A DNA stretch of 34,031 nt from Methanothrix sp. (GCA_040770465.1 JAXGJB010000032.1:1-34031); one strand, 5' to 3'; counted from the stretch's first letter, positions 6,632-33,682 are shown. Numbers and translations are program-made. The notes: generated from the letters alone by a model not told the origin.

Positions 6632-6830
6632 AGCTAGCATTTTACGGCCTTAATGCATAGCGAAAAAAATCCATTTTGCACGAACCTCCGGCACTTCTGC
6701 GATTCAATGCAGAAGAGCGCCCGATTTTTTGCCGTTTTCGATATGCAAAGACACTGCACGGACGATTTTTTCTAATGTGCCAGCAGATATCGATGGGTTT
6801 TTTGAAGGGAGGTTCGTGCAAAAATCTCGG
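6632..6830 (-). promoter_or_regulatory. CRISPR leader
   Basis: Non-coding stretch with A/T tracts next to the non-degenerate end of the array. It contains a perfect 16-bp inverted repeat at 6674-6689 and 6808-6823. Confidence 0.8.
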
Positions 6831-7019
6831 CCTTTTTCAGGGCCTCATGGAATTTTCGATATCGGGAGGCTGCCACATCGATGCATATCGATTCTTCTTG
6901 CTGTGCCCTGGGCTGGGCACGGCTTTATCCATCCGTCTGGATCGAACGGCCTTTGAGATTTCGTCAAAGGGGCTTATTAACCCAGATGCCTTTGTTGTAT
7001 CCAGTGGATTTGACTGCTA

Positions 7020-7145
7020 TTAAACATTTCTCCCATCCACCGTCCCCTCCTCACCCTCCGCTATGAACCTGAAGACGAAGGCCGCCTCCTCCCAGGCCTT
7101 CTCGATGATCGTCCCGTAATAATTGAGGGCGAACTCGAAATCCTC
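7020..7145 (-). pseudogene. Probable extreme C-terminal fragment of a family-B (PolB2-like) DNA polymerase
   Basis: My translation is EDFEFALNYYGTIIEKAWEEAAFVFRFIAEGEEGTVDGRNV*. It resembles the FD..YY..LLEKAW.E.AFVF ending I recall for Methanotrichaceae PolB2-type proteins. There is no start codon and an in-frame stop lies upstream. Confidence 0.45.
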
Positions 7146-7217
7146 ACCCGATGGTTCGATCCTGCCGGATGACTCATCGCCCGATGATCCGATCTGCTTA
7201 TCGTCTGCGAGTCAGAT

Positions 7218-7256
7218 CTCCAAAATAGCCTACACTCCAAAATAGCCTATTTTGAG
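7218..7256. repeat. 15-bp direct repeat overlapping a palindrome
   Basis: CTCCAAAATAGCCTA at 7218-7232 and 7235-7249. The second copy is part of CAAAATAG-C-CTATTTTG (7238-7254). Confidence 0.8.
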
Positions 7257-7420
7257 AACCGTTTTATACTTTCCCGAAGAGCCCGGACGAGAGAGGCGGG
7301 CGGCCTCGCCGGCCGTCCTCTCCCGGCGCCGATGAAGAGAAAAGTTCCCTGATTCGATGATGAGCCCTATGAGTCCTGAGGCGTCCGGGGACCTCTCGGG
7401 CCCCGTCAATCGCTCCCGGC

Positions 7421-7732
7421 TCAGGCCTTCTTCGCCTTGGACTGTGCCCAGCGGTCAACGTGGTCGATGAGGTTGAACTCGATGATCTTCTTCGCGTCGC
7501 TGAGCATCTCCGCCACCTCGCCGATGGTGAATTTGGCGGTGTTCCCCGCTCGGTTCACCACCTCTATCTCCTCCTTGAGGTCGATCGCCTTCCCGGAGGC
7601 GAGGATCGCCGAGAGGTCCTGGCAGGCCTTCTTCAGGTACTCGATCGAGTAATCGGCCATCGATTCTCGGTCCTGGAGGTTCCTGTTGACCTCCTTTATG
7701 GACCAGCACATGGTAATGACTTTCTCGTACAT
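7421..7732 (-). CDS. Hypothetical protein
   Basis: Strong GC3 codon bias. ATG at 7732 is preceded by GGTGGAG; alternative starts are 7759 and 7711. Confidence 0.75.
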   Translation of the reverse strand: MYEKVITMCWSIKEVNRNLQDRESMADYSIEYLKKACQDLSAILASGKAIDLKEEIEVVNRAGNTAKFTIGEVAEMLSDAKKIIEFNLIDHVDRWAQSKAKKA

Positions 7733-12378: not shown

Positions 12379-12660
12379 CTAACCCTGCGACGTCTTTTCG
12401 ATCTCGCTCAACCGGAACTTGCCCCCACGCTCGTCTCCCAAAAACTCCGCCTGCCCAGTGACTACGTCTCCTGACGAGAGAGACGGCATGGGGTCAAAGG
12501 CAAATCCCTCAGCCCTCTCGCCTACGTGGGCAAAGTCAGGTCCGCTCAAACTCTTCGACTCGATGATCTCCAGATCGATGATCCATTTATCAGGATGATC
12601 AGAAGACCGTTCAAGAGACAACACCTTCGCCTTGATCTGGGATCGGTTGGGGGCTGCCAT
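12379..12660 (-). CDS. Small beta-rich hypothetical protein (possible OB-fold), last gene of the M6 protease cluster
   Basis: RBS GAGGTG before the ATG. Alternating hydrophobic strands (IKAKVLSLE, WIIDLEIIE, GDVVTGQAEF, FRLSEIE). No signal peptide. Confidence 0.75.
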   Translation of the reverse strand: MAAPNRSQIKAKVLSLERSSDHPDKWIIDLEIIESKSLSGPDFAHVGERAEGFAFDPMPSLSSGDVVTGQAEFLGDERGGKFRLSEIEKTSQG

Positions 12661-12752
12661 GACACCTCTAAACTCGAGCGCTATAACTAGACCTCCTACA
12701 AATCGGCAAAATGGGAGGAAGAAGTGGCCTAAAAAAAGCCACTCAAATCCCT

Positions 12753-13187
12753 CTAACCTTTATTTTTGCCCTCGGGCTTCTCTTCGGGCGTGGGAATTTC
12801 AGCCGTCTTCAGCTCGCTCAGCGGCTCTGGTCTGGGAATCGCCCCAGCCTCTCCAGAGACCTGCACCGGAGACGTCGGTATAGGTGCGGCTCCCAATGCG
12901 CGAACTTCAAACTGGCTCAAGGTTTCCGGTGTGGGCAAATCCTCCATCGTCTCCGCAGCCTTCATCTGAGCTTCGATCATCGAAGGGACGGGAAGCCCGG
13001 CGGTCAGAGCAGTTTCTAAAGCTGCTGCTCCCGCCATTGCCTGTGTCTGTTCAGGCACAGGCAAATTCGTCAGGCTGAGTGAGCCGGTAGTGGCGCCCAG
13101 TGACTGCCCCAGTTCTGATGCTACTGGTGCAGGCGGAGAGCCGGTTCTTTCCGGCGTTGAGATCTTGATCGTCACTTCTGGACCCAT
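12753..13187 (-). CDS. Pro/Glu/Ala/Thr-rich, probably disordered protein with repeated xPxP motifs
   Basis: ATG at 13187 follows GAGGT. A short N-terminal strand EVTIKIS is followed by LPVP, LPVP, LPTP, APIP, IPRP and IPTP. Confidence 0.75.
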   Translation of the reverse strand: MGPEVTIKISTPERTGSPPAPVASELGQSLGATTGSLSLTNLPVPEQTQAMAGAAALETALTAGLPVPSMIEAQMKAAETMEDLPTPETLSQFEVRALGAAPIPTSPVQVSGEAGAIPRPEPLSELKTAEIPTPEEKPEGKNKG

Positions 13188-13210
13188 AATATAACCTCGT
13201 CCGACATCGA

Positions 13211-13435
13211 TCAAAGCAGATACGCCGTGATGATCAGCCCGCTGTCGTCGATGTTCACGTTCACCTGCCGGTTATTCGCTTTGGCGGCGCACATCAAGAT
13301 GAAAAGATTTGTGACGCCGTCTGCCGAACCGTCCTTGATCCGTCTCCAGCCGACCCCGCTTATATCCGCCCACGCCCACTGAGTGGTGTGGTGAACGAAG
13401 GTCGAATTTACAGTCCGATTGTTGTACCAGACCAT
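13211..13435 (-). CDS. 74-aa protein, stand-alone copy 2 of the M6 protease C-terminal domain
   Basis: RBS GAGGTGA then ATG 13435. It has 9 nt differences in 225 from copy 1, giving one amino-acid change. Confidence 0.9.
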   Translation of the reverse strand: MVWYNNRTVNSTFVHHTTQWAWADISGVGWRRIKDGSADGVTNLFILMCAAKANNRQVNVNIDDSGLIITAYLL

Positions 13436-13486
13436 TATCCTCACCTCTCAAACAAGATATCTTTTCCGAATCCTATCATACATCGA

Positions 13487-13717
13487 TCATAGCAGATACG
13501 CCGTGATGATCAGCCCGCTGTCATCGATGTTCACGTTCACCTGCCGGTTATTCGCTTTGGCGGCGCACATCATGATGAATAGGTTTGTGACGCCGTCTGC
13601 CGAACCGTCCTTGATCCGTCTCCAGCCGACCCCACTTATATCCGCCCACGCCCATTGGGTGGTGTGGTGAACGAATGTCGAATTTACAGTCCGATTGTTG
13701 TACCAGACCATCTTCAT
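13487..13717 (-). CDS. 74-76-aa protein, stand-alone copy 1 of the M6 protease C-terminal domain
   Basis: RBS AAGGAGG, start at 13717 or 13711. About 44 of 74 residues are identical to the protease C-terminus by hand alignment. Confidence 0.9.
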   Translation of the reverse strand: MKMVWYNNRTVNSTFVHHTTQWAWADISGVGWRRIKDGSADGVTNLFIMMCAAKANNRQVNVNIDDSGLIITAYLL

Positions 13718-13756
13718 ATCCCTCCTTTAAAGCCCAACTTTGATCAAACTGCCGTC

Positions 13757-15334
13757 CTAGACGAGATACATAGTGTACAAGAACTCGTTGTCTACGTAGA
13801 CGTGCGCCTGCTTGTTGTTTGCGACAGCCTCGCAGCAAGCGTTGAAGATGTTGGTTACGCCGTCAGCCGAGCCGTCCTTTATACGTCTCCAACCGAGGGT
13901 GTCGATGTTTGCCCACGCCCATTGTGTTGTATGGTGAGCGAAGGTTGACAGTACCTTCTTGTTGTAGTACCAGGCCTTCACCGCCGCCCCTCCAACGTTG
14001 ATATTCGCCTTTATGTCGTCACCAGAACGCTGTATGTCTGTCACACTCACTTTTGAATCCGAGCCGCTGTACGCCTTGCTGCTTGGATTGCTGGTTGCAG
14101 TAAATTCTGAGCTGGTTGAGGGGAACATATCTGCGGCATTGCCGCTGTTGATGTTCTTATTCAGCTCGAATTTACCGTCAGCTTGCTCCACATCTACAAG
14201 GTAGTGGTTCTGGTCGTTGTTGTTCAGCTGATTCTCGTCAACGTGAAGTATCGATAGACCCTCACCAGGAAGATCCATCTCGAATCCAGTCTTCTTTCGA
14301 TTTGAGAGGAGGAAGTACTCCTTGCTGTTGATATCTCCGACGGGAAGCTTGTAGACCTGTGCGTTGGTGGCGTACGGCTTGATGGTGACAGCCTGCTGTG
14401 CGTTGAATATCGTCACCGGGTTGACCCAGCCGAGTTTCGTCTTACACCAGCTGGTTGGATGAGCAGGATTACTGCCGCCTCCGTTCCAGCTTCCACCGGC
14501 CATCAGACACCAGCGGCCAACTCCGGCGGAGTCGTAGTCGTAGTCGTACAAGTCTGGCAGACCGAAGACGTGCCCCAGTTCGTGGCAGAATACTCCGATC
14601 TTTCCGTCCTCAGGTTCCATGGAGTAGCTGCTGACCTTCACCCCATCAACGGTCTTTGGATTAATTCCCCATTGATGCGACCATATGTGATCGACGTTCC
14701 CCGTGGTCTCGGCTCCAGGACCCGCGTGCACGATGAAAAGAGCATCGACCACCCCATCTCCATCGTTGTCGTAATTGGCGAAGTTCACGTGAGGGGCGGC
14801 GAGATCTACCGCATCTTCGACCAGCTTTTGAGCGTTTTTGGGATATGTCCCAAATCCATACTCGCCGTTTGTGTAGTATGTATACGCCTGGGGTGCCCGA
14901 TACCAGCCTGCGGTTGGGCCACCTTCACCGCTCACATCACCGGTTACAGTGAGCTTATTGTAGGATGCCTCCCAGTAGAAGTCCCTCAGGCTTTTTGTCG
15001 CCCCTCCGCTTGAGAACAGCATGTCTGCAAAATGTCCCTTGCTCTGGGTGGCGGTATTATTAGAGAAATCTACCAGTAGAACAAGGGCCTTCCTCGTTCC
15101 AACTACCGGAGCAAGTTTTGCCTCTCTGGAGATGAGGGTATGGGATCGAGTTCTCATGGGACGGGATGTTATCAGCTGAAAACTTCTGAGATCCAGGACG
15201 TCTACTGTAGTCGTTGATGGCAAAGCTTCTTTAGCACTGAACATCTTCTTCGTTTTGATAATTTTTTTCTCCAATTCAGGAGATGGCGGCACTATACGTG
15301 GTTTAGAAGCCATTTTCATAAACCAATCCTCCAT
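13757..15334 (-). CDS. M6-family (immune inhibitor A-like) zinc metalloprotease with no signal peptide
   Basis: ALVLLVDFS, SLRDFY.EASY, YDNDGDGVVDALFIVHAG.G.E, IWSH.W, zinc motif HELGHVFGLPDLYD, Met-turn WCLMAGGSW, LGW, EYFLL.NR. The N-terminus is hydrophilic with a PPSPEL pro-region. Confidence 0.93.
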   Translation of the reverse strand: MEDWFMKMASKPRIVPPSPELEKKIIKTKKMFSAKEALPSTTTVDVLDLRSFQLITSRPMRTRSHTLISREAKLAPVVGTRKALVLLVDFSNNTATQSKGHFADMLFSSGGATKSLRDFYWEASYNKLTVTGDVSGEGGPTAGWYRAPQAYTYYTNGEYGFGTYPKNAQKLVEDAVDLAAPHVNFANYDNDGDGVVDALFIVHAGPGAETTGNVDHIWSHQWGINPKTVDGVKVSSYSMEPEDGKIGVFCHELGHVFGLPDLYDYDYDSAGVGRWCLMAGGSWNGGGSNPAHPTSWCKTKLGWVNPVTIFNAQQAVTIKPYATNAQVYKLPVGDINSKEYFLLSNRKKTGFEMDLPGEGLSILHVDENQLNNNDQNHYLVDVEQADGKFELNKNINSGNAADMFPSTSSEFTATSNPSSKAYSGSDSKVSVTDIQRSGDDIKANINVGGAAVKAWYYNKKVLSTFAHHTTQWAWANIDTLGWRRIKDGSADGVTNIFNACCEAVANNKQAHVYVDNEFLYTMYLV

Positions 15335-15666
15335 TTATCCCAATTTAGTTCTGAATGTACTCTACCAGAGTAATTCAACTTTTAGTATCTACATCTAATC
15401 ATACATCTTAATATAGTTTACGATCCAAATATTAAATAAAAACTCAATTGTAATTAATAAAATATATAAATATTTTAAGTGATTATTCTCAATTTTATTT
15501 GGAAAAAACATCATGCGGGTTATATCCAGATATTTTATTAAGGATTTGAGATATATGCAACAAATTATTCATAAAACTTTTACCGAGTTCGCCTCGCGTC
15601 TCAGCTTCGCAAAAAGCAGGGTTGAGAAATTTCCGGACGGAAAATTAAGTTCTAATAGTTGGGTTC

Positions 15667-15792
15667 ATGACCGGAGAGCGCGCTGCCTTCACCCAGACCT
15701 CGGCCATCACCGGCCTCGGCGGCGCCGGCAAGACCCAGCTCGCCATGGAGTACTCCTACCGCCACGCGAACGATTACAAGGTCATCGGTTAA
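15667..15792 (+). pseudogene. Remnant of an NB-ARC/STAND NTPase (P-loop segment only)
   Basis: My translation is [41 protein letters not shown], matching the AI.GLGG.GKTQLA.EY.YRH...Y..V.W start of NB-ARC-TPR proteins. Confidence 0.85.
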
Positions 15793-15805
15793 GCCCACCA
15801 CTTTC

Positions 15806-15937
15806 AGCGAGAGCTTCCAAGCGGTGGAGAAGGAGATCGAGCTGATGAGCCCGAAGGCGGCAGCAAGGGTGAGGGAGGCCGCGGAGCTGATGGACGCGTG
15901 CACCGCGAAGCTGGAGGAGGCGAAAGATCAAATATGA
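15806..15937 (+). pseudogene. 3' half of a small helical His-rich (HWIEHN-type) protein gene
   Basis: SESFQAVEKEIELMSPKAAARVREAAELMDACTAKLEEAKDQI*. Positions 15805-15861 match 18489-18545 at 52/57 nt. Confidence 0.65.
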
Positions 15938-16452
15938 TTTTCAATTATTCAGTAGGGCGATATTTAATTTCGCCGCAAGGATTATTGGTCGTCTCATATA
16001 GTCACACATCTTCAAATTTTAAGATAATCTCATAATTGTCATCTATACTTATCGTGACCTTAGTAGGATAGGAAAAGGGTATTTTGGCGACTATTTTTTC
16101 GCGCCGCATATTCGCATCACCATCCTTTACAAGACTTTTGCTCATAGGGTTCGTTCTTATTCATCATTATATAAATTTTTTAAATTATACGATATATAAA
16201 GATATTTAGCAATATAAATTCCTTAATTATATTATAAGTTATTATTATCTAAATACATATAACATTTTACTTCAAAAGGAGATCCATCTATTGCGCTTGT
16301 ATCGGTTCTATGAGCGCAATTTTAAATCAACTTATACTGTAAGAAACCGATAGTTTTAAATAAGTTTAATACGAAATAGCTAGACCATTGAGCAGTTTAA
16401 TTTAGAAGATTTAGTTTAATTCCAAAATATGTGCTTTAAGGAGGGGGCGAAG

Positions 16453-17703
16453 TTGAAATCAAGATACTTCTTGGTATTATGCCTAGCACTCGTAGTAGGC
16501 GTGGCATCTGGATCATCCGTTTATCAGCTGATTGGAACGGGTGGTTCCGATAAATTCGATCTAAATTTGAACAGCACTCAGAAAAACGATAGCCTATATG
16601 AAATATATCTCGCTCAACCGGTTATCTCAACGTTCTACATCCCGCAAAACTATTCCAGTGATATCATCGCATATATATATGACGACGAAATCACTTTAAA
16701 TGGTGGGCATGTTTTTGAATTTGAAGGCCATATGGAAGTAGAAAACGACCATGATACATATAGTATAGAAGTTCCAGGGCCATCGAGAATCATTGTAGAA
16801 AATTTTGGAGATATAACCTGTTCAGAACGGTATAATAGTCGTCCCCAAGTATGCTACATCAAGTCGACAGGTTATTTGGTAGATGCTGATCACAATTTAC
16901 ACCGCATCGGAAATGTGAAGATTATCACAGATAAGGGATCTTCGTTTGAATATTTAGGAACTAGATGCCTTCTTCGGTTCCAACGTGTTCGAATCGTCAC
17001 TGAAGACGGCTTAACGGACCCAAAATACGTCCCGGATCCCGGCGACATGATCATAACTTGGTCTGGTGTTGAACGGCGACCAATTTTTATTCCACCTACG
17101 ATACCTTCCGATTTTGCGATTATCTCTCTCATTGACGTCTCGCAGATCTATATGACAGCTGGAGCATCTGGGGATATAACTAACGTGACTTACAGCATCA
17201 CAGCGAGTAACACCGGTGAAACTAAGCTAAAGAACGTAACCTTGACTGACATGTTGCCTCCTGGCATGGAATTTCACGATGCAGTATACTCCAGCGGTGG
17301 GGAACCTGACCTGCTGTCATTGAAACGTACGAAACTTGACTGCGAATGGCTGGTGAACGTCGTTCTGTACCTCGGCGACTTGGACACCAGCGAGAGCAAA
17401 TTGCTCCTTTTAAACGCATCTCATGAAGGCTCGGAAAAGGAAGAGGATTATTACGGCAATAATAGCGTCATCGTTTTCGGAGAAGCTGCAGATATGCTTA
17501 AAGTAAATGCATCAAGCGACACAGCCGAACCCATTAATAATGCAACCGGGAACGAAACCGACGAAGATGGAAATGGAAATGAGACCGAAACCAGTGAACC
17601 ACTTGAAAATGAGACGGAAAGCAACGAAACCGGAGCGTCGGACAATCAATCAGTAAACATAGTTCTCACCCCGCTGACGTTAATGACTGCACTGTGTCCC
17701 TAG
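16453..17703 (+). CDS. Secreted/surface protein with a DUF11-type Ig-like domain and an acidic N-x-T-rich tail
   Basis: Signal peptide after TTG 16453 (RBS GGAGGGGG). VTYSITASNTGETKLKNVTLTDMLPPGMEF is the DUF11 pattern. The tail has repeated NET/NAT sequons. Confidence 0.8.
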   Translation: MKSRYFLVLCLALVVGVASGSSVYQLIGTGGSDKFDLNLNSTQKNDSLYEIYLAQPVISTFYIPQNYSSDIIAYIYDDEITLNGGHVFEFEGHMEVENDHDTYSIEVPGPSRIIVENFGDITCSERYNSRPQVCYIKSTGYLVDADHNLHRIGNVKIITDKGSSFEYLGTRCLLRFQRVRIVTEDGLTDPKYVPDPGDMIITWSGVERRPIFIPPTIPSDFAIISLIDVSQIYMTAGASGDITNVTYSITASNTGETKLKNVTLTDMLPPGMEFHDAVYSSGGEPDLLSLKRTKLDCEWLVNVVLYLGDLDTSESKLLLLNASHEGSEKEEDYYGNNSVIVFGEAADMLKVNASSDTAEPINNATGNETDEDGNGNETETSEPLENETESNETGASDNQSVNIVLTPLTLMTALCP

Positions 17704-17765
17704 AATCATCACCAGTGATGAGATGGAGAACTCAAAGAAGTAGATCAGGGGAATCTGACAGTAAG

Positions 17766-17811
17766 AATCTGCCTCCGGATTATACCGAGGGGCAGATTAG
17801 TATAATTTTTT
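17766..17811 (+). terminator. Stem-loop followed by a T-tract
   Basis: AATCTGCC...GGCAGATT (17766-17798) then a T-run, about 60 nt after the stop of the upstream gene. Confidence 0.5.
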
Positions 17812-18379
17812 AGATAGTAATAATCTTGTTCACCATTCGGAGTGACTGTGGCTGGATTCGTCATGTGCTCTCGGGCCCACGCCCCGGAAAGTCCTCCTCC
17901 TACCCCCCTTCGCAGGTCCTTGCTAATCGAACCATGGGGGTCGGTCGTCTCCTTCAGATCCCAGGAACAAGAAAGAGCCTTGACTCCTGGTCCACCACCA
18001 CGGAGTCGCGTAGAGAAGGCTTGCCTGGAAGATCTGCCCTGGAACGCTGAGGCGGTGGAGGTGGCAATTTGAGATTTGTCCTGGTGTCGTTAGCCCGGCG
18101 GGGATGGCTACATAGAGCCCAGGGAGGGGTCCCCGGCTATTATTAATACTTGATGTGCAAGGAAAGCTCGGAGGCCAGGGCCTGCTGCTGGAGATCTCCG
18201 ACTACATGATAAGCTGGAGTTATATTCCATAAACCGACCAAAGGAATTCGTGACTCTTGTGCCGATCTACCGAAGGCTGGCGGGTCGGCCAGCAGCCGAA
18301 GTACGCAAAGTGACTCGTTTCTGAGGTAGCGGGGCAAGTTTAGGAGCAAGGTTGAGATCAGGATAAGGAGGCGTTCAAA

Positions 18380-18561
18380 TTGCACGAGCATGATGAACTG
18401 CACAAGCACGATTTGCACAAACGCGAACTAAATGCGCACGAGATCTAGCTACCTTTTGGAGCACTGAATCGAGCACAACAAGAGCTACCAGCGAGAGCTT
18501 TCAAGCGATGGAGAAGTAGATCGAGCCGGTGAGCCCGAAGGCGGCGGGAGAGGTGTGAGGG
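18380..18561 (+). pseudogene. Degraded 5' portion of the same His-rich HWIEHN-type gene
   Basis: RBS GGAGG and TTG start. Reads MHEHDELHKHDLHKRELNAHE / SYLLEH*IEHNKS / SESFQAMEK*IEPVSPKAAGEV* with two frameshifts and nonsense codons. Confidence 0.65.
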
Positions 18562-18582
18562 CTAGTCCCCCACTTTCCCTCC

Positions 18583-20286
18583 TTACTCCGTTTCTGTAAT
18601 AGTTGCCTGGCTGGTGACTATTATTCTCTCGGACCCGTATGCGAATATACCCTCCACGACGACTTTATTGTCGTCGGTGCTACCCAATCCCTTATCATCT
18701 ATACTGGCATCCATGTAGATATATACATTTTCTCCGCTATTAAGGGTACCCAACTCCCAGGTTAGGTTAAATGCAGTATCAGTACTGCCAGATTCTGTCA
18801 GGCGTGAGTATACTTTTGGTTGGATATCACTTCCTCCAGAAGGCCAGCCGTTATCGACACCATCATTCACATCATCAGGCACCAGTCCTTCATCACCATA
18901 TATGTCTATCAAACGATCTATATTTATAGATATATCAACATCACTGTTGTATACTTGAGAATAGTTGAATTTGAGGTATTCAGGTAAGATATCGACGACT
19001 TTGACATCTACAAGGTCAGTATTACCAACATTGTGAATCCTGATCATGTAATTTACCGTATTGTTTACTTTATCGAAATCATCAACTCTCTTGAATATCT
19101 CTATACCAGGTCCATCCTGGCCAGCTGGACTTGATCCGGTTCCTTGTCCCGCCCCCGGTGAGGAATATCCATATCCTTCATCCAAATCGGTATAGATGCA
19201 TTCATATCCCTCAGCACATTCTGTATCTGTAGTATTGCATTCCGTATAATTCCGATCGTTTGGAATATTGCGAATAAGGTTATTCGAATATCGTTCGTAC
19301 TCGCTTGAGAGTCCGATATGCGCTATGTCAATTGAATATCGTCTGTACTCGTCAGAACGTCCCAGGTTTTGGATTGGCAGCATCTTCGAGTTTGGCAGTA
19401 TAATATCGGGGTCTAACGTATAATAAACGCCACTATTTGGCCAATATCCCGCTGTTAGCCCTATTGAACAATTTCCGTTTCCTCCTGGACAAGATGGCAC
19501 TATGGGGGGATTACCGCCGATGCAACATGACAACCAGTCGTCATCACCGGCTGCCGGGATGAAAACGCCCTCTGCAACCAATTTATTTACAGCGGTGAAA
19601 TTCCCTTTCATCAGAGCCGTCTGTTCCCAGTCTACCCTCTTGCCACAGGTTTCATTTGTCCACCCTGTTGAGTCCCAGACCTCTAAAGCGCCATTTTTAA
19701 CATCTGCATTGTAATCGAAATAGTAATCAAATGGCTTTCCAGTCTCGTTCATCGGACCCATTCCTATATCTGTATTAGCTTCAACATTCATGGGGCCGTA
19801 TTTTTCTCCGACTCGATAGGCATATCTATCTGTATCGCTTATCTTGGTTACATCATACCACATTTCTGTATATCTTATTTTTTTCCATGCTGATAAGGCT
19901 CTGTTATTCGGGAAGTATCCTTTCGCATATATTTTTGCTATTGCTTTGTCGCCTTCGAAATCAACCTTCTGTTCTCGCTGCAATGCCGAAGAATAATTTA
20001 CATAAGGTTCATTATGAGTGGCATCTTTCAGGCCGTCGTAGTAACTTATATAATCACGAAAATCAATATCGCCATTTTCCAAATATACTAAAGTTCCAGT
20101 CTTATACCCTTCTGAATAACTGCATTTTTCAAGTTTAGGTTCTTCTATATAATTATAGTAAGTCATTGTTGCACTATCATTTTCCGTGCTTTTGCACTCA
20201 AAAGTGCTTGTTATAGTAGTAGCCGAAACTGTAGCGCAGAATACTACAACTATCAAAAATAATTGGATTGTGAATCTCATAATCAT
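18583..20286 (-). CDS. Secreted Cys-containing protein with a C-terminal DUF11-type domain
   Basis: Signal peptide. IEIFKRV...VNYMIRIHNVGNTDLVDVKVVDILPEYLKF...LTWELGTLNSGE...NKVVVEG is the DUF11 pattern. Low GC. Confidence 0.8.
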   Translation of the reverse strand: MIMRFTIQLFLIVVVFCATVSATTITSTFECKSTENDSATMTYYNYIEEPKLEKCSYSEGYKTGTLVYLENGDIDFRDYISYYDGLKDATHNEPYVNYSSALQREQKVDFEGDKAIAKIYAKGYFPNNRALSAWKKIRYTEMWYDVTKISDTDRYAYRVGEKYGPMNVEANTDIGMGPMNETGKPFDYYFDYNADVKNGALEVWDSTGWTNETCGKRVDWEQTALMKGNFTAVNKLVAEGVFIPAAGDDDWLSCCIGGNPPIVPSCPGGNGNCSIGLTAGYWPNSGVYYTLDPDIILPNSKMLPIQNLGRSDEYRRYSIDIAHIGLSSEYERYSNNLIRNIPNDRNYTECNTTDTECAEGYECIYTDLDEGYGYSSPGAGQGTGSSPAGQDGPGIEIFKRVDDFDKVNNTVNYMIRIHNVGNTDLVDVKVVDILPEYLKFNYSQVYNSDVDISINIDRLIDIYGDEGLVPDDVNDGVDNGWPSGGSDIQPKVYSRLTESGSTDTAFNLTWELGTLNSGENVYIYMDASIDDKGLGSTDDNKVVVEGIFAYGSERIIVTSQATITETE

Positions 20287-20306
20287 CGTCCTCCGCCATT
20301 CTAAGA

Positions 20307-21251
20307 TTAAACAAATATGAACTTAATATCTGTTCCTTTGGTTCTAATCTTCTTCGTTTCGGGATCCCAATAAATGGGATTGGGCATGAGTTTTCCGTCC
20401 ACATCCTTTTCTCTTCCACTGTTCCAGATGGCAAGGACAGAATTTGACCCACCTTTCACATCGTCTGGACTGATTATTCCTACACCGACTGGACATCCTG
20501 GATAATCGCGGCGCACATGAACAAAATACCAAAGCGCCTTATCATAATCGTGCCAGTTTTCCTTAAAAGTTATACGATCAGCTGGTGTTTCTGATTTATG
20601 ATGCTTATCCATATCAGGGCATTTTCTAAAACCTCTTTCAAGATAATCTAATATCCCGTTATTTTGCTTCCTCAAGGGATAAATTAGACGTTTATTATCA
20701 AATATCAAAAAATCTTTATGTGACTTATCTCCAAGTTGATATTTGGGATGACCTGTAAAAAGCTGTCCAACTGGCTTATCGCATATTGGAAATGCCACTG
20801 TTGACATGACACTATGGAATCCTGTTTGATTATTGAGCTTGACCTCTCCATGCGCTTTTATCGGATCGTAGAGCACCAGCTTGAGTTTATTATCTTCTTT
20901 TACAAAAAACATAACAATAGCATGGTCTTGGTTTTGCATATATGCGGCTTTTCCTGAAATCACTCCAATGGGATACCCTGGAATAGCATTCCGAACATGA
21001 GCCGCGCCCCAAAAAGCTCTGTCTTCGCAGTCATAAAACTCTGGTACATAAGTACCATAATGGAGGCTCTCCAAAATATCTATTACTGCTTGTTTATCCT
21101 GCAATATATTCATATCTTTGAAATCGGTATCGAACATGGTTGTTCCGCCAGCCACGCCAAAGAAGCCTGAAGGCTTTGGAATTACTGATACCTCTTGGTC
21201 CGGACAAATGATGGGGGCCATGTTTTTGCTCTTTAATTCATTGCAAGTCAT
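20307..21251 (-). CDS. Tandem-domain protein with one papain/transglutaminase-like Cys-His-Asp domain and one degenerate copy
   Basis: Domain 1 has YDCEDRAFWGAAHVR..IPGYPIGVI...DHAIVMF...LYDP. Domain 2 has HDYDKALWYFVHVRRDYPGCPVGVGII...NSVLAIW...YWDP. Confidence 0.6.
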   Translation of the reverse strand: MTCNELKSKNMAPIICPDQEVSVIPKPSGFFGVAGGTTMFDTDFKDMNILQDKQAVIDILESLHYGTYVPEFYDCEDRAFWGAAHVRNAIPGYPIGVISGKAAYMQNQDHAIVMFFVKEDNKLKLVLYDPIKAHGEVKLNNQTGFHSVMSTVAFPICDKPVGQLFTGHPKYQLGDKSHKDFLIFDNKRLIYPLRKQNNGILDYLERGFRKCPDMDKHHKSETPADRITFKENWHDYDKALWYFVHVRRDYPGCPVGVGIISPDDVKGGSNSVLAIWNSGREKDVDGKLMPNPIYWDPETKKIRTKGTDIKFIFV

Positions 21252-21740
21252 ATGCTGGTATTATACTTTATCATATTTTAACTTTCCGCCTTATTTTAAT
21301 AATCAGGTAATTAATACAAACCACGGAAAGGAAACCGGATAATATGAAAATATAAAAATTAAAAATAATTTTAAACTTCTATATATATAATTTTCACGAG
21401 ATTATATCTGAATTCGATATCTAATGATGAGTCAGATTTCGAGTCATCAGAAGGATGCGATCTGATCCAAAATACAAATTTTATACATTGCACTTGATCA
21501 TATAAAATATCTTCGACAAATACCATAATATTTTCTCTATTATTTTCTTTGCTTCAAGGGATCACTTAAAGCCTTTTTGCTTGCGCATGACCGGTGTAAT
21601 TATGAGAATTGCTGCAACCAGTTATCCAATCACTTATAAATCACAGCAAATGTCAAGAGGGAAATAGCAATTTCGTTGGCTTCTCATCAAACCCCGCCTT
21701 CCAAAAGACAAATAAGCTTTCCCTCCCACCCGAAGACCTG

Positions 21741-23222
21741 ATGACGCGATTCATCGTGGTCCTGGGTACCACCTCCCACTCCGGAAAGAGCACCATCGTC
21801 GCCGCCCTCTGCAGGATCCTCCGAAATCGAGGCCTCAAGGTAGCCCCCTTTAAGTCCCAGAACATGTCCCTCAACTCCTGGGTCACCCCAGGGGGCAAGG
21901 AGATGGGGATCGCCCAGGCGGTCCAGGCCTGGGCCGCGGGGGTAGAGCCCTCTGAGCTGATGAACCCGATCCTCCTCAAGCCGAAGGGGGACAGGACGAG
22001 CCAGGTGATCGTCTTCGGGGTCCCCGTCGCCGACAAGTCGGCGGAGGAGTACTACCGGGAGATCGATGGGTTGAAAGGGGACGTGGACCGGGCCATCCAT
22101 GAATTGTCTCGGGAGTACGACTACATCGTCGTCGAGGGGGCGGGTGGGGCGGCCGAGATCAACCTCTTCGACCGGGACATCGCCAACATCTACGTCGCCG
22201 CAAAGCTCGGGGCCCCCATCATCCTGGTGGGGGACATCGAGAGGGGCGGGGTCTTCGCAAGCCTCTACGGAACGGTGGCGCTTCTCCCCCCCGAGATCAG
22301 GCCCCTTGTCCGGGGGCTTGTCATCAACAAGTTCCGGGGCGACCCCGCCATCCTGGAGCCGGGGCTACAGATGCTGGAGAAGCTGACGGGCGTTCCCGTC
22401 CTCGGTGTCATGCCCTACCTCGACCTGAACCTGCCATCCGAGGACTCCGTCTCCCTGGGGGACAAAAGGGCCGATGTCGGGGGCGAAAAGGTCGAGATCG
22501 CTGTGGTCAGGCTTCCGAGGATCTCCAACTTCACCGACTTCGAGCCCCTGGAGCGGGAGGCACGGGTCCGGTACGTCGCCCCCGGCGAAGCTCTGGGAAG
22601 CCCCGACGCCGTCATCATCCCCGGGACGAAGAACACCGTCGCGGACCTCGAGGAGATGCGGGCGAGGGGGACCGACCGGGAGATCCTGGCCCTGCGGGAT
22701 GCCGGGGTTCCGATCCTGGGGATCTGCGGCGGCTACCAGATCCTGGGCAGAACCATCGTGGACCTGGGGATCGAGAACACCACCGACACCGTTCCGGGCC
22801 TCGGCCTCCTGTACCTGGAGACCCGGTTCGACCGGTACGAGAAGAGGACCGTCCAGGTGGAGAAGACGGTCACCGGAGACGGCCCGATCCTGGGCCCTAT
22901 AAAAGGGGAGAGGGTATGGGGCTACGAGATCCACATGGGCATCACCGCCTCGCGAGAACCCCCCGCCTTCGGGGACGACGGGGCGGTGGCCGGCGACGGG
23001 CTGGTCATGGGAACCTACCTCCACGGGATCTTCAACAACCAGAACTTCAGGGACGCCTTCCTGGACTACCTCTATTCGAAAAAGAACCTGGTCCGGGGAT
23101 CGGCCGGAGCGGGCGAAGGGTATGACGAGCTCGCCGCCGCCACGGAGAAGTACCTGGATATGGAGAAGATCTGGAAGATGATCGACGTCGAGCCGCAGTC
23201 GAGCCCGGATGAGGCGGATTAG
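21741..23222 (+). CDS. cobQ: Cobyric acid synthase
   Basis: GTTSHSGKS, APFKSQNMSLNS, MNPILLKP, EGAG..AEINL, DIERGGVFA, ISNFTDF, GICGGYQ.LG, GYEIHMG, GTYLHGIF. Start moved to ATG 21741. Confidence 0.97.
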   Translation: MTRFIVVLGTTSHSGKSTIVAALCRILRNRGLKVAPFKSQNMSLNSWVTPGGKEMGIAQAVQAWAAGVEPSELMNPILLKPKGDRTSQVIVFGVPVADKSAEEYYREIDGLKGDVDRAIHELSREYDYIVVEGAGGAAEINLFDRDIANIYVAAKLGAPIILVGDIERGGVFASLYGTVALLPPEIRPLVRGLVINKFRGDPAILEPGLQMLEKLTGVPVLGVMPYLDLNLPSEDSVSLGDKRADVGGEKVEIAVVRLPRISNFTDFEPLEREARVRYVAPGEALGSPDAVIIPGTKNTVADLEEMRARGTDREILALRDAGVPILGICGGYQILGRTIVDLGIENTTDTVPGLGLLYLETRFDRYEKRTVQVEKTVTGDGPILGPIKGERVWGYEIHMGITASREPPAFGDDGAVAGDGLVMGTYLHGIFNNQNFRDAFLDYLYSKKNLVRGSAGAGEGYDELAAATEKYLDMEKIWKMIDVEPQSSPDEAD

Positions 23223-31547: not shown

Positions 31548-32018
31548 CTATACACTGCCAAAAAAGCGATCACATGCATCTTTAACACATAAAACTGTAA
31601 TAGACATGTTTCCCTCCAAGAATTGTTTAATATTTTCATTGTAATCAGAATCCTCTGTAACTAATGTCTTATTTTTTGACCTAAAACAAACTGCAACAAA
31701 TTTTCGATCATCTGGATCAAATACTAATCGATCTAATTCCCTTTTTTGTCGCCGTGTCAGACTACCGTCGTAAATTTTAAATGACCTACTTACAAACTTT
31801 CCGAATAATATTTTGGATAGTTCGCATCCAGGGTATGTCCTCTTTTCGCGTTCCATTACCTCTAAACAAGTCCGATACTCTCTTTCTATATTTCTTTGAA
31901 TATCTACAGAAATCCTGTCATTGTTATGTAATATATTCATCAAAAGTGTTATGGCATCAGTTTCGTTCTTTCCTACAGCATAAAATAGGCAAGTGTCTAT
32001 TGTCCATTCATAGTTCAT
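31548..32018 (-). CDS. PIN-domain-like nuclease
   Basis: WTIDTC (Asp after strand 1), IEREY, DPDDRKFVAVC and LVTEDSDY give the PIN acidic tetrad pattern. AT-rich. Confidence 0.75.
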   Translation of the reverse strand: MNYEWTIDTCLFYAVGKNETDAITLLMNILHNNDRISVDIQRNIEREYRTCLEVMEREKRTYPGCELSKILFGKFVSRSFKIYDGSLTRRQKRELDRLVFDPDDRKFVAVCFRSKNKTLVTEDSDYNENIKQFLEGNMSITVLCVKDACDRFFGSV

Positions 32019-32028
32019 CTAGATCATC

Positions 32029-33336
32029 TCATGAAGTCGATTCTGATATAGCCTTAAGATGCTCAAAAGCTTCTATGACATCCTCCTCAAAAAAACCTTC
32101 TGGAAATGATTCATATTGACCTTGATCATTTAAAGTTACTCTTTGTATTTTTGTACCTTCAGGTGTGGGCTTAAAATAATAAATTGCAATATCACTTGCA
32201 TTAATTTTATTTTCAGCAATGCGACGGCGTACGCGGGATAGCATATGCTCGCTATGAGTTTCGACAATAAATGTGCGGTTATTTTCTTTAGTAGCCTTAA
32301 TAAATAAATCTCCAAGAATAGATTGGGCCTTTGGATGTAAATGTATCTCGGGCTGTTCTATTAAAATTACGCTGTCCGATGGTGCATAAAAACTCTCAAT
32401 AATGATAGGCAATGTCTGGGATGCCCCGAAGCCAATATCCGCGATGTTCACCTCGGTTTCCGTCTGAGGGTCTACGATGTTTACTATATAGTAATTACCT
32501 TTCCTAACTCTAGTTAATTTTATATCCTGCGCTATATCGAATTTCTTTAACCAATTTCGAACTTCATTCTCAACTTTGCTATCGCTTCGATGAGATAGCC
32601 ATAATACATCAACTGCGCGTTCACCCCTTATTCCTACATCAGGAGGTGATTGCCCGCTAGTTATATAAAACCTTCTAGGATAATCACGAAGCGGGCCTAA
32701 GTAGAAAAAATCACGGAGGACATCTTCGATTATTAAATTCAATTTCCAATATATTCTAGGTGGAAGTCGTCCCTTCAAATTTTCTTCAAATGTTTCACCT
32801 TTTTTTAGCGATGGGACGAAATTATAGAATTTCAATGGGAATACATTATTATATTTTGTTATATTTTGTTCACCATTGTTTTTGTACGTGATTTTTGCAT
32901 AATATTCATTCCTATTTTTTTTATGGATAATCTGCAGCTTATATTCTTCCCCTGCAGAAATTTCTGATTTATCTAATTCGATTTGGGTCGTCTTATGATT
33001 ATATTTTAGGCTAAAATTAAAACGTATGTCACCAGGAATTTCCATTTTATCGAATCTAGCTGGCGTAGTTAATTCCATCGAAATACTTATGTTTCTCTTA
33101 CTCTCGCCTTTATATACAAATTCAGGATAAGCACCAAGCTGAATCCAGTTATCATTTGCTATTAAAGCGTTATGAAAATCAGTGCTATCTACAGTTTGTT
33201 TTAATGTGAGTAGCATTTTTAAGAGACTGCTCTTGCCCGATGAATTCGGTCCTACCAGGAAAGTTAATGGACAAATCTCTAATTCATCAGTATCCTGAAA
33301 ACATTTGAAATTTTTTATACGGACCGTCTTTAGCAC
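32029..33336 (-). CDS. ABC-superfamily (AAA_15/AAA_21-like) ATPase with a DUF3696-type C-terminus
   Basis: IKNFKCF, Walker A GPNSSGKS, YLGPLR, signature IGFGASQTLP, Walker B LIEQPEIHLHP, ETHSEH and the tail GQYESFPEGFFEE. GTG start at 33336 after GGTGA. Confidence 0.9.
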   Translation of the reverse strand: MLKTVRIKNFKCFQDTDELEICPLTFLVGPNSSGKSSLLKMLLTLKQTVDSTDFHNALIANDNWIQLGAYPEFVYKGESKRNISISMELTTPARFDKMEIPGDIRFNFSLKYNHKTTQIELDKSEISAGEEYKLQIIHKKNRNEYYAKITYKNNGEQNITKYNNVFPLKFYNFVPSLKKGETFEENLKGRLPPRIYWKLNLIIEDVLRDFFYLGPLRDYPRRFYITSGQSPPDVGIRGERAVDVLWLSHRSDSKVENEVRNWLKKFDIAQDIKLTRVRKGNYYIVNIVDPQTETEVNIADIGFGASQTLPIIIESFYAPSDSVILIEQPEIHLHPKAQSILGDLFIKATKENNRTFIVETHSEHMLSRVRRRIAENKINASDIAIYYFKPTPEGTKIQRVTLNDQGQYESFPEGFFEEDVIEAFEHLKAISESTS

Positions 33337-33682
33337 TGTAATCACCCAGTGTACCAATCAGATATCCATATATTTGAGAGTATTGGCGTGAGGCCAAAAA
33401 CGCCGAACATCACCTATCGGCGCTAGATAAAGCCGAGCCGCCCTTTGGATCCAGACATGAGGCGAATATCAGCGCCCCCGCTGCCCATCCCCATCACCGC
33501 GCCGGTCGGGCGCATCATCTCCAGCGTCCCGAAACCCACGCCGCGCGCCTCCCGGCCGATCGGTCCTCGGGCGCCCTCGACCCGCGGGCGGCGTGCTCGG
33601 CCACAAAATGATCTGACCACGAACGAAAGTGCGTAAGAGGACTTTGAGAGGATGCCAGAAAGGGGGGGGTACTTTTCCCAGG

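Follow-up and report, generated by a model that had tools for sequence, protein, structure and literature searches.

Within a 34,031-nucleotide (nt) stretch of DNA from Methanothrix sp. (GCA_040770465.1, JAXGJB010000032.1:1-34031; hereafter the window), we analyzed a cluster of five tightly packed genes that spans positions 12379-15334, all on the minus strand. The cluster encodes an M6 (InhA-type) zinc metalloprotease, two small proteins that resemble the end of this protease, a proline-rich repeat protein, and a protein of 93 amino acids (aa). Our preferred reading, to which we give slightly less than an even chance, is that these genes constitute a cytoplasmic, horizontally spread protease cassette built around a previously unannotated adaptor domain with an OB fold. 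Protease-borne (fused) and free copies of this domain would bind one another homotypically, in the manner of the B subunits of AB5 toxins, with few protease heads among the free subunits of each assembly. The disordered repeat protein would act as a multivalent scaffold or tether, possibly as a substrate, and the 93-aa protein might be the cognate inhibitor of the M6 head.

An M6 protease encoded beside free copies of its C-terminal domain

The protease gene (13757..15334, minus strand) encodes 525 aa and matched PF05547 (E = 3.9e-28, 99 bits against a cut-off of 22) and TIGR03296 (E = 5.4e-76, 256.2 bits against a cut-off of 110.8). A profile built from 32 of its relatives also matched the solved InhA chain 4yu5_A (E = 3.4e-31). 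The zinc site, comprising H251, E252 and H255 of the HExxH motif, was invariant together with D261 in 32/32 aligned relatives. Judged by these matches, the catalytic domain is a member of peptidase family M6 (InhA).

The last 72 residues of the protease (13757..13975, minus strand) form a small domain that recurs in two further genes, each encoding 74 aa and each 59% identical to the last 74 residues of the protease. Free copy A occupies an open reading frame (ORF) at 13487..13717 (likely ATG at 13711) and free copy B an ORF at 13211..13444 (likely ATG at 13435), both on the minus strand. We favored these starts because the DNA identity between the two copies begins exactly there. A genome-wide search of the 2.54-Mb assembly returned only three copies of the small domain, one fused (E = 4.3e-27 to the free copy) and two free. 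In their coding parts, copies A and B differ at 9 bases, of which, by our own reading of the alignment, 8 are synonymous and 1 causes an M-to-L change. By this comparison copy B is a recent, lineage-specific tandem duplicate of copy A, and two free copies were seen only in close relatives of the window (L036-L040).

The repeat protein (144 aa; ORF 12753..13214, likely ATG at 13187) and the 93-aa protein (12379..12660) complete the cluster, likewise on the minus strand. Counted from the preferred starts, the gaps between the five genes are 45, 51, 23 and 92 nt. An earlier note, made from the sequence of this DNA alone, had described five co-oriented, closely spaced genes lacking signal peptides: an M6 protease, two 74-aa genes similar to its end, an xPxP-repeat protein, and a 93-aa beta protein. 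This description is borne out in each part by the common strand and a hydrophobicity scan, by the family matches and the 59% identity, by six [LIVMA]PxP motifs in the repeat protein, and by a five-strand model of the 93-aa protein.

In that simple hydrophobicity scan, no signal peptide was found in any of the five window proteins; the highest N-terminal 12-residue Kyte-Doolittle means were 0.66-1.0 (0.69 for the protease). None of the 32 M6-OB relatives reached a mean of at least 2.0, and they thus lack an N-terminal hydrophobic stretch. As positive controls we used P0135 and P0200, relatives of the small domain whose signal peptides are obvious; they gave 2.68 and 3.04.

A small domain with a predicted OB fold

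The small domain matched no Pfam or NCBIfam family. We found no Pfam B-subunit family matching it at E up to 1, and its profile returned nothing below E = 0.5 among solved chains. A PADLOC scan of the protease, the repeat protein, the 93-aa protein and free copy A gave no family match. A profile search of 1.84 billion representative proteins yielded 287 matches at E ≤ 1e-3, 122 of them at ≤ 1e-10. In a word-indexed search, 42/42 candidates of one set were free relatives of the domain, and 38/51 of another were longer relatives, 35 of these 38 carrying PF05547. Among the 150 matches listed, the domain was free or lay within about 10 residues of the C-terminus in nearly all, the exceptions being a few partial matches (e.g. 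P0163 and P0190). P0161 carries it in two tandem copies. On these searches, the small domain is an unannotated family. In a protein atlas, both small proteins of the cluster fell into unnamed clusters only and named leads stood at chance level; links of the small domain to SLT_beta and subtilase B clusters, at 0.76-0.77, were rejected on that ground.

AlphaFold2, run with a 43-row alignment, modeled the free copy as an OB barrel with the topology b1-b2-b3, a 16-residue helix, then b4-b5 (predicted local distance difference test, pLDDT, 94.6). The most conserved residues of the domain include four Trp. When this model was submitted to Foldseek, the B subunits of heat-labile, cholera and pertussis toxins came first (template modeling score, TM, 0.76-0.79; E ~1e-2), and the list included 4l63, titled 'Apo form of AB5 holotoxin', which we take to be EcxAB. 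An exhaustive aligner ranked LT-IIb B (Z = 10.1), pertussis S5 (9.7), cholera toxin B (9.0), typhoid PltB (8.5) and Stx2 B (8.2) ahead of SSB-type proteins (Z ~7), and the model aligned over all 76 residues with the first four of these. The OB fold of the modeled domain is clear; its resemblance to AB5 B subunits is generic, not specific, for reasons weighed below.

The cassette recurs across archaea and bacteria

A contig scan with one genome per species and a 15-row alignment identified 13 loci, a metagenome scan 20 more, and a search of the window's order nine further regions. The taxon labels of the 13 genome loci were Methanosarcinales, Pseudomonadota, Chloroflexia, Ca. Ribeiella, Thermomicrobiales, Nocardioidaceae/Nocardioides and Acidimicrobiia, and overall the cassette was present in archaea, Chloroflexota, Actinomycetota, Thermomicrobiota and Pseudomonadota. 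All 13 genome loci encode an M6-OB protease, 58-70% identical to that of the window; 12 have a free copy directly downstream of it, and 12 a homologue of the 93-aa gene, either downstream or divergently upstream. The exception among the 13 was L011, which ends 304 nt past the protease.

By our own tally, pooling the loci and merging rows with identical OB sequences left 26 distinct M6 lineages. A free copy lies directly downstream of the protease in 22/26, and a Pro-rich ORF directly follows the free copy in 19/26 (17 of these with a common N-terminal strand motif). The 93-aa gene is present in 15 lineages, absent from 6 despite adequate flanks, and not judgeable in 5. Locus L054 ends too early for its free copy to be judged, and in L011 (and its twin L046) the repeat-protein ORF comes directly after the protease, with no free copy. 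In each of five bacterial genomes we found exactly one fused and one free copy. The possibility, raised in the earlier note, that free copies occur only in this genome with no conserved neighborhood is set aside by their conservation, neighborhood included, across two domains of life.

The distribution is patchy. The small-domain family occurs in 9/105 genomes of the window's order (G000 included), in 0/15 other genomes of its genus, and in 2/401 sampled genomes of the phylum of L006 (query genome included), where it is therefore rare. A sample of 400 other genomes of that phylum gave no cassette loci of the S8, M10 or M12A types described below, with one further match overall. A tblastn search of the free copy against plasmids and phages gave no match. 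As part of our preferred reading, we regard the cassette as self-contained and horizontally spread between archaea and bacteria. No published description of the domain or the cassette was found in the full-text literature, supplements and subscription journals being outside the reach of the search; the earlier note, too, knew of no described system with this architecture.

A separate observation concerns L031 (G005:C46, 5283-6872), of the same family. Here, the M6-OB gene is split into ORFs of 136 and 391 aa, the OB domain has diverged and the free copy is absent; judged from these lesions, this cassette appears to be decaying.

Free and fused forms as co-inherited paralogues

We next consider the relationship between free and fused copies. 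A domain tree was built from 73 rows, near-duplicates (L032, L037, L039, L040 and L053) and the broken L031 having been left out. All 32 M6-type free copies formed one clade (support 94/96) from which fused copies were excluded, and the fused copy of the window grouped with fused copies of other M6 cassettes. Only 5 changes of the free/fused label were required on the tree, compared with a mean of 24.7 after shuffling, and 0/500 shuffles gave a number as low. Clustering in the papain (C1) and L027 types instead followed cassette type, free copies grouping with fused ones. The two forms also differ in length (72 residues when fused, 73 when free), and each has its own conserved ending. It follows that both forms have been retained from a time before the cassette passed from one domain of life to another. 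Each cassette type keeps its own matched free/fused pair, and the two forms are old, distinct, co-inherited lineages under purifying selection.

It could be argued that the free copies have no joint function with the protease and are left-overs from local duplication of its 3' end. The two window copies do stem from a recent tandem duplication, and the cassette in L031 is decaying. Yet the free copies make up a single old clade and persist in 22/26 archaeal and bacterial lineages, the profile search returned 287 representative proteins, and of the base changes that separate the window copies 8 are synonymous and 1 is non-synonymous. Already contradicted by this conservation, the left-over explanation is hardly credible.

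The earlier note had proposed that the small domain is an oligomerizing subunit and that the fused copy lets the protease co-assemble with free copies. We modeled four free copies together with protease residues 450-525 as five chains with alignments of our own, a setting that differs from the one for which the tool was calibrated. The score was 0.60 (runs 0.66, 0.43 and 0.60), in the weak-support band, against 0.03 for the best of three controls. The pass mark is reached by 58/80 solved complexes and 2/110 mismatched pairs; just 7 of the 80 solved complexes, and both passing mismatches, scored no higher than 0.60. Contact agreement between runs was at least 96%, and partner pLDDT at least 84. 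Co-assembly of free with fused copies is thus plausible from the model. The proposal is partly supported, by the AB5-B-like predicted fold of the domain, by the long persistence and co-inheritance of its free and fused clades, and by the score of 0.60 against 0.03 in complex prediction. The fold match is not specific, and the ring, filament or shell that the earlier note pictured would go beyond these results.

Alternatively, the free copy might be a regulator: the fused OB domain would dock either on a target or on the catalytic domain of its own protease, and the free paralogue would be a competing decoy or anti-adaptor. Such a role would fit a free copy number that ranges from 0 to 2, the presence of a protein-glutaminase pro-domain (3a54_A, Z = 9.1) among the fold matches, and the conserved differences that set the free and fused clades apart, for example in the last strand. 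It would, however, require one small domain to regulate metallo-, serine and cysteine peptidases alike, in cassettes of which the M6 and C1 types already contain a separate, class-matched gene for an inhibitor or candidate inhibitor, and the complex prediction places the fused domain against free copies well above controls. We therefore regard a decoy role as distinctly unlikely.

The domain terminates peptidases of five families

A Pfam scan of 42 longer domain-bearing proteins assigned three to M6, two to S8, two to astacin M12A, two to matrixin M10, three to papain C1 and one to Kelch; many of the remaining 29, which were unassigned, are contig-end fragments, and some (P0215, P0216, P0217, P0219 and P0222) are complete proteins. 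The small domain hence terminates peptidases of five families (M6, S8, M10, M12A and C1), and no signal peptide was found in the fused peptidases examined. In P0135 and P0200, which belong to the unassigned proteins, a clear N-terminal signal peptide precedes a Pro-rich linker, and some members of the small-domain family are therefore exported.

Several loci of other cassette types merit description in their own right. The papain-type L030 (G040:C90, 4755-6791) encodes, in this order, a C1-OB protease, a free OB domain preceded by a fused disordered stretch, and a chagasin of inhibitor family I42 (PF09394, E = 9.1e-18, 64.8 bits against a cut-off of 27.2). In L029 (G013:C47, 3146-5141), the C1-OB gene precedes two identical free OB copies, between which a four-repeat protein is encoded. 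L071 (G276:C555, 114-2912) has a C1-OB protease followed by a 548-aa DUF6345 protein (E = 8.6e-18), not a free OB copy. A further type, represented by L027 (G065:C195, 3649-5463) and L028 (G085:C10, 4872-6639), starts with a head of about 290 aa, followed by a free OB copy and a PxP-type protein; the 93-aa gene is absent from this type. The head (L027/P0157 type) had no match in Pfam, in NCBIfam or among the sequences of solved structures, and its GHG...NSCQVHN motif presumably resembles the His/Cys pair of clan-CD peptidases. Lastly, L042 carries an extra papain-type free OB copy (2402-2632) 0.8 kb upstream of its M6 cassette, and an IS1-family transposase (6821-7594) downstream of it.

A disordered repeat protein as putative partner of the OB domain

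The Pro/Ala/Glu-rich repeat protein of the window is predicted to be disordered. Its six [LIVMA]PxP motifs start at residues 42, 65, 84, 101, 117 and 131 and are evenly spaced, and its N-terminus carries the strand motif PEVTIKIST. When six-frame ORFs were filtered for motif and proline content, 21/2619 passed, and all 21 lie directly downstream of cassette OB genes, either after the free copy or, in L011, after the protease. A counterpart also directly follows the free OB gene in the L027/L028 type. The gene is nearly as conserved as the free copy (19/26 versus 22/26 M6 lineages), which it generally follows where the contig leaves room. Its repeat motif differs between M6-type and C1-type cassettes, the L029 kind reading P-x-D-F-x-P-x-E-V-x-A-L. 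In addition, a disordered Pro/Glu-rich stretch is fused ahead of a free OB domain in L030, P0215, P0216, P0217, P0219 and P0222. Judged by gene order and co-occurrence, the OB domain appears to have a partner in the repeat protein. Binding of proline-rich peptides by known modules relies on aromatic-rich surfaces, and in our preferred reading the Trp-rich surface of the OB domain would likewise bind the [hydrophobic]-P-x-P motifs of the disordered protein.

RNA evidence came from four metatranscriptome runs of one anaerobic-digester study, in the form of low-depth contigs that cover parts of four of the five genes. Contigs lie on the 93-aa gene (12423-12646), free copy B (13242-13437) and the protease gene (14023-14402). 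The repeat-protein gene (12754-13258) was the sole gene covered in 4/4 runs, one contig extending 44 nt into free copy B. There was no contig cover at ~13542-13943 and 14480-15551, where the data are uninterpretable.

These features would also suit peptide processing, in which the repeat protein would be a multi-core precursor or substrate: the protease would dock through its OB domain on PxP motifs and cut between repeats, and the free OB copy would carry, protect or compete for the peptides, with no OB-OB assembly. Six evenly spaced repeats, a gene nearly as conserved as the free copy, a repeat motif that changes with OB type, and RNA cover in every run are what such a precursor might be expected to show, and a zincin-like peptidase paired with a small, fast-diverging precursor is described in the portion of PMC7159879 considered here. 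Five unrelated peptidase families would, however, each need a matching cleavage specificity, and genes for modification or export were absent from the neighborhood of the window cluster and of the six other loci whose flanks were scanned. Moreover, L033 and L034 keep fused and free OB copies without a clear repeat-protein gene, and the old split between free and fused paralogues is left unexplained. On balance, we consider peptide processing unlikely.

The 93-aa protein as candidate inhibitor of the M6 head

AlphaFold2 modeled the 93-aa protein with five strands and no helix (pLDDT 88.9), as a second OB barrel. No sequence relationship between the two OB families was detectable by profile-profile comparison (probability 0.1). 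Foldseek matched the model to the NTR-type C345C domain of C3 (6xzu_B; E = 8.7e-4, TM 0.72) and to PriB (E ~1e-3), with the NTR modules of PCOLCE and meteorin near E = 1e-2. The most conserved stretch of the protein is its extreme N-terminus, M-A-A-P-N, in which P4 and N5 are invariant in 26/26 sequences. An apparent upstream extension of the gene in some gene calls overlaps GAGGTG, which resembles a ribosome-binding site.

The family was seen with M6 cassettes only and is absent from genome G065, which carries the L027 type. In M6 cassettes, its gene occupies the place that chagasin holds in the papain-type L030. The main reason for considering it an M6 inhibitor is thus that inhibitor class tracks protease class. 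Position, class specificity and the conserved N-terminus together point to a class-specific inhibitor of the M6 head, an assignment that we make tentatively and rate at or a little under even. The free N-terminus A-A-P-N, after removal of Met, would sit in the active-site cleft, and inhibition would keep the signal-less protease silent in the cytoplasm of its producer. We know of no dedicated protein inhibitor of M6 peptidases.

As a side observation, in G089 the 93-aa gene is cut at a contig end (C57), with the remainder at the end of C64; a further partial match lies at G089:C64:7383-7526.

Weighing the cassette reading

Several results weigh against our preferred reading of a cytoplasmic cassette built on a homotypic adaptor. 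SilF (Z = 9.3), which we take to be a monomeric metal-binding protein, the protein-glutaminase pro-domain 3a54_A (9.1) and CipA (9.1) match the small-domain model within 1 Z unit of the toxin subunits. Because non-toxin OB proteins score so near them, the OB fold is clear whereas kinship with toxin subunits is not, and the small domain has no sequence similarity to any solved chain. The complex prediction, besides scoring in the weak band, returned no interface or assembly geometry, and the binding of the OB domain to PxP repeats is something that we infer. The composition of the cassette also varies. No free copy lies within 2 kb downstream of the protease in L055 or in the broken L031, so the fused domain can stand alone; the C1-type L071 lacks a free copy, a DUF6345 protein taking its place; and, as noted, the repeat-protein gene is not clearly present in L033 and L034.

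The proposed inhibitor meets objections of its own. Its gene is dispensable, being missing from 6/21 judgeable lineages and from the whole M6 genomes G100 (94% complete) and G014 (99% complete). The protein has neither an N-terminal nor a conserved Cys and belongs to no Pfam inhibitor family, and the best fold matches of its model are the single-stranded DNA-binding proteins SSB and PriB (Z 8-9.5). Finally, the RNA-library contigs indicate presence, not level or strand, and may reflect DNA carry-over.

The prominence of AB5 B subunits among the fold matches also invites a different explanation, a true exported toxin of the AB5 type, in which the free copies would be a receptor-binding pentamer, the protease the A part, and release would proceed by lysis or another route. 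Two domain relatives (P0135 and P0200) do have signal peptides, and a cognate cytoplasmic inhibitor would suit a dangerous exported enzyme. Protease A subunits, of the serine-protease or the putative metzincin kind, are moreover known among AB5 toxins, SubAB and EcxAB/CfxAB being named in the part of PMC11610972 drawn on here. Nevertheless, an N-terminal hydrophobic stretch was found in 0/32 M6-OB proteases and in none of the other fused peptidases examined, and the A part is fused to the B-like domain instead of being threaded through a pore. Neither a Pfam B-subunit family (at E up to 1) nor any solved chain was matched by sequence. In the window and the six other loci scanned, there were no secretion genes and the flanks were not conserved. 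The hosts include a methanogen-lineage archaeon and taxa that we take to be monoderm, with no periplasm for assembly. An exported toxin is accordingly very unlikely in our estimate. The earlier note's related suggestion of a toxin particle found no direct support: there is no export signal, there are no nearby secretion genes, and the flanks vary.

The boldest form of our preferred reading would be a ring, with one OB subunit borne by the protease and about four free, stapled by five to six PxP repeats, capped by the inhibitor and fitted with exchangeable heads (M6, subtilase, astacin, matrixin, papain and the unassigned type), as a cytoplasmic AB5 counterpart in archaea and bacteria. We think this full picture improbable, if worth stating. 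Were it true, it would define a new family of modular protease particles, which might be a kind of ancestor of exported protease-headed AB5 toxins.

Collectively, our results define an unannotated OB-fold domain family, with 287 representative clusters in 1.84 billion proteins and no Pfam or NCBIfam model, together with a compact gene cassette, mobile between archaea and bacteria, in which the domain is joined to peptidases of five unrelated families. If free and fused copies do co-assemble, the cassette would be a simple natural device for fixing how many enzyme heads a small assembly carries, and the domain would be a possible cytoplasmic relative of AB5 B subunits. If the inhibitor assignment holds, the 93-aa protein would found a new inhibitor family for M6 peptidases.

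Surroundings of the cluster in the window

Between the repeat-protein gene and the 93-aa gene, the sequence contains an inverted repeat, AGTGGC / GCCACT, that flanks a run of seven T (12723..12743, minus strand; T-run 12731-12737). It is possibly a transcript end, to judge from its sequence. RNA-library contigs over the repeat-protein gene stop at 12754-12776 in 4/4 runs of the one study, which is a weak hint in the same direction.

The genes surrounding the cluster are archaeal housekeeping genes (glutamine synthetase, PurD, Kae1, CobQ, ProRS and DUF1699). Across the window and the six other loci scanned, flanking genes vary, and no secretion, phage or NTPase-core genes were found among them. 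Upstream of the protease gene and divergent from it lie short broken ORFs (15513-15845). One of these (15667-15792, plus strand; 41 aa) contains a P-loop-like GLGGAGKT and gave weak Pfam matches to KaiC (0.019) and AAA_25 (0.063); judging by this motif, it may be the remnant of an NTPase gene. RNA-library contigs from two runs lie on 15659-15800.

Further upstream, 16000-22000 is a low-GC stretch (35-49% GC, versus 58-64% in the flanks and 53% in the protease cluster) that encodes two large DUF11-domain proteins (16429-17703 and 18583-20286) and an unassigned 314-aa ORF. By composition and content, it looks like an acquired island of surface proteins. In another low-GC stretch (31548-33357, minus strand), an AAA_15/AAA_21 ATPase with DUF3696 (442 aa) adjoins a weak PIN_3-like ORF (156 aa). 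This pair, ~17 kb from the cassette, looks defense- or toxin-antitoxin-like from its domain matches.

Comparison with known systems

The catalytic domain of the window protease is shared with immune inhibitor A and other M6 peptidases, as the Pfam, TIGRFAM and solved-InhA matches and the intact zinc motif attest. InhA-type enzymes are typically secreted and carry other C-terminal domains; the window protease, by contrast, lacks a signal peptide and ends in an OB tail.

For the 93-aa protein, the closest parallels are inhibitors. TIMPs have a conserved free N-terminus, whose Cys binds the catalytic zinc, and conserved disulphides, and both TIMPs and the Inh proteins of Serratia and Pseudomonas insert their N-terminus in the active-site cleft. 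The 93-aa protein resembles TIMP/NTR inhibitors in its predicted OB-type barrel, its matches to NTR modules, and the strong conservation of its N-terminus, but it lacks the N-terminal Cys, the disulphides and the helices, and SSB and PriB score as well or better. Operons that pair a peptidase with its own inhibitor are familiar from staphostatin-staphopain and Inh-serralysin. The L030 cassette, where a chagasin I42 gene stands last, behind a papain-like C1 peptidase, is of this kind; the 93-aa protein differs in belonging to no known inhibitor family.

With AB5 toxins of the SubAB and EcxAB/CfxAB kind, the cassette shares a peptidase encoded beside a small OB-fold subunit that is present in several copies, as far as these toxins are described in the part of PMC11610972 used here. 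In AB5 toxins, A and B subunits bear Sec signal peptides and come together outside the cytoplasm, and the B subunits, which bind host glycans, make up a five-membered ring. The window proteins, however, have neither signal peptides nor sequence similarity to B subunits. Their protease is covalently fused to the B-like domain, whereas the AB5 A part has a tail through the pentamer pore, and a pentamer is here conjectural. The cassette additionally contains conserved genes for a PxP-repeat protein and a second OB protein, and its hosts are environmental archaea and bacteria.

A second parallel is with the effector-associated domains (EADs) of prokaryotic conflict systems, small domains found on varied effectors and proposed to couple homotypically (Kaur et al., 2020; PMC7159879, in the portion considered). 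As described there, the same small domain occurs on varied effector enzymes, peptidases included, and also in an adjacent gene. The cassette domain likewise occurs on M6, S8, M10, M12A, C1 and Kelch proteins, with an adjacent free copy in the M6, C1 and L027 types. It differs in that the partner copy of an EAD sits on an NTPase, vWA or other core, whereas here it is free or on a disordered stretch, and that portion of the paper mentions the OB fold only for S1-like and cold-shock RNA-binding effector domains, not for EADs (PMC7159879). No gene for an NTPase, vWA or GTPase core adjoined the cassette, either in the window or in any of the six further loci that were scanned. Membership in either class therefore fails; in the way its architecture works, the cassette is most like AB5 toxins with protease A subunits and the EADs.

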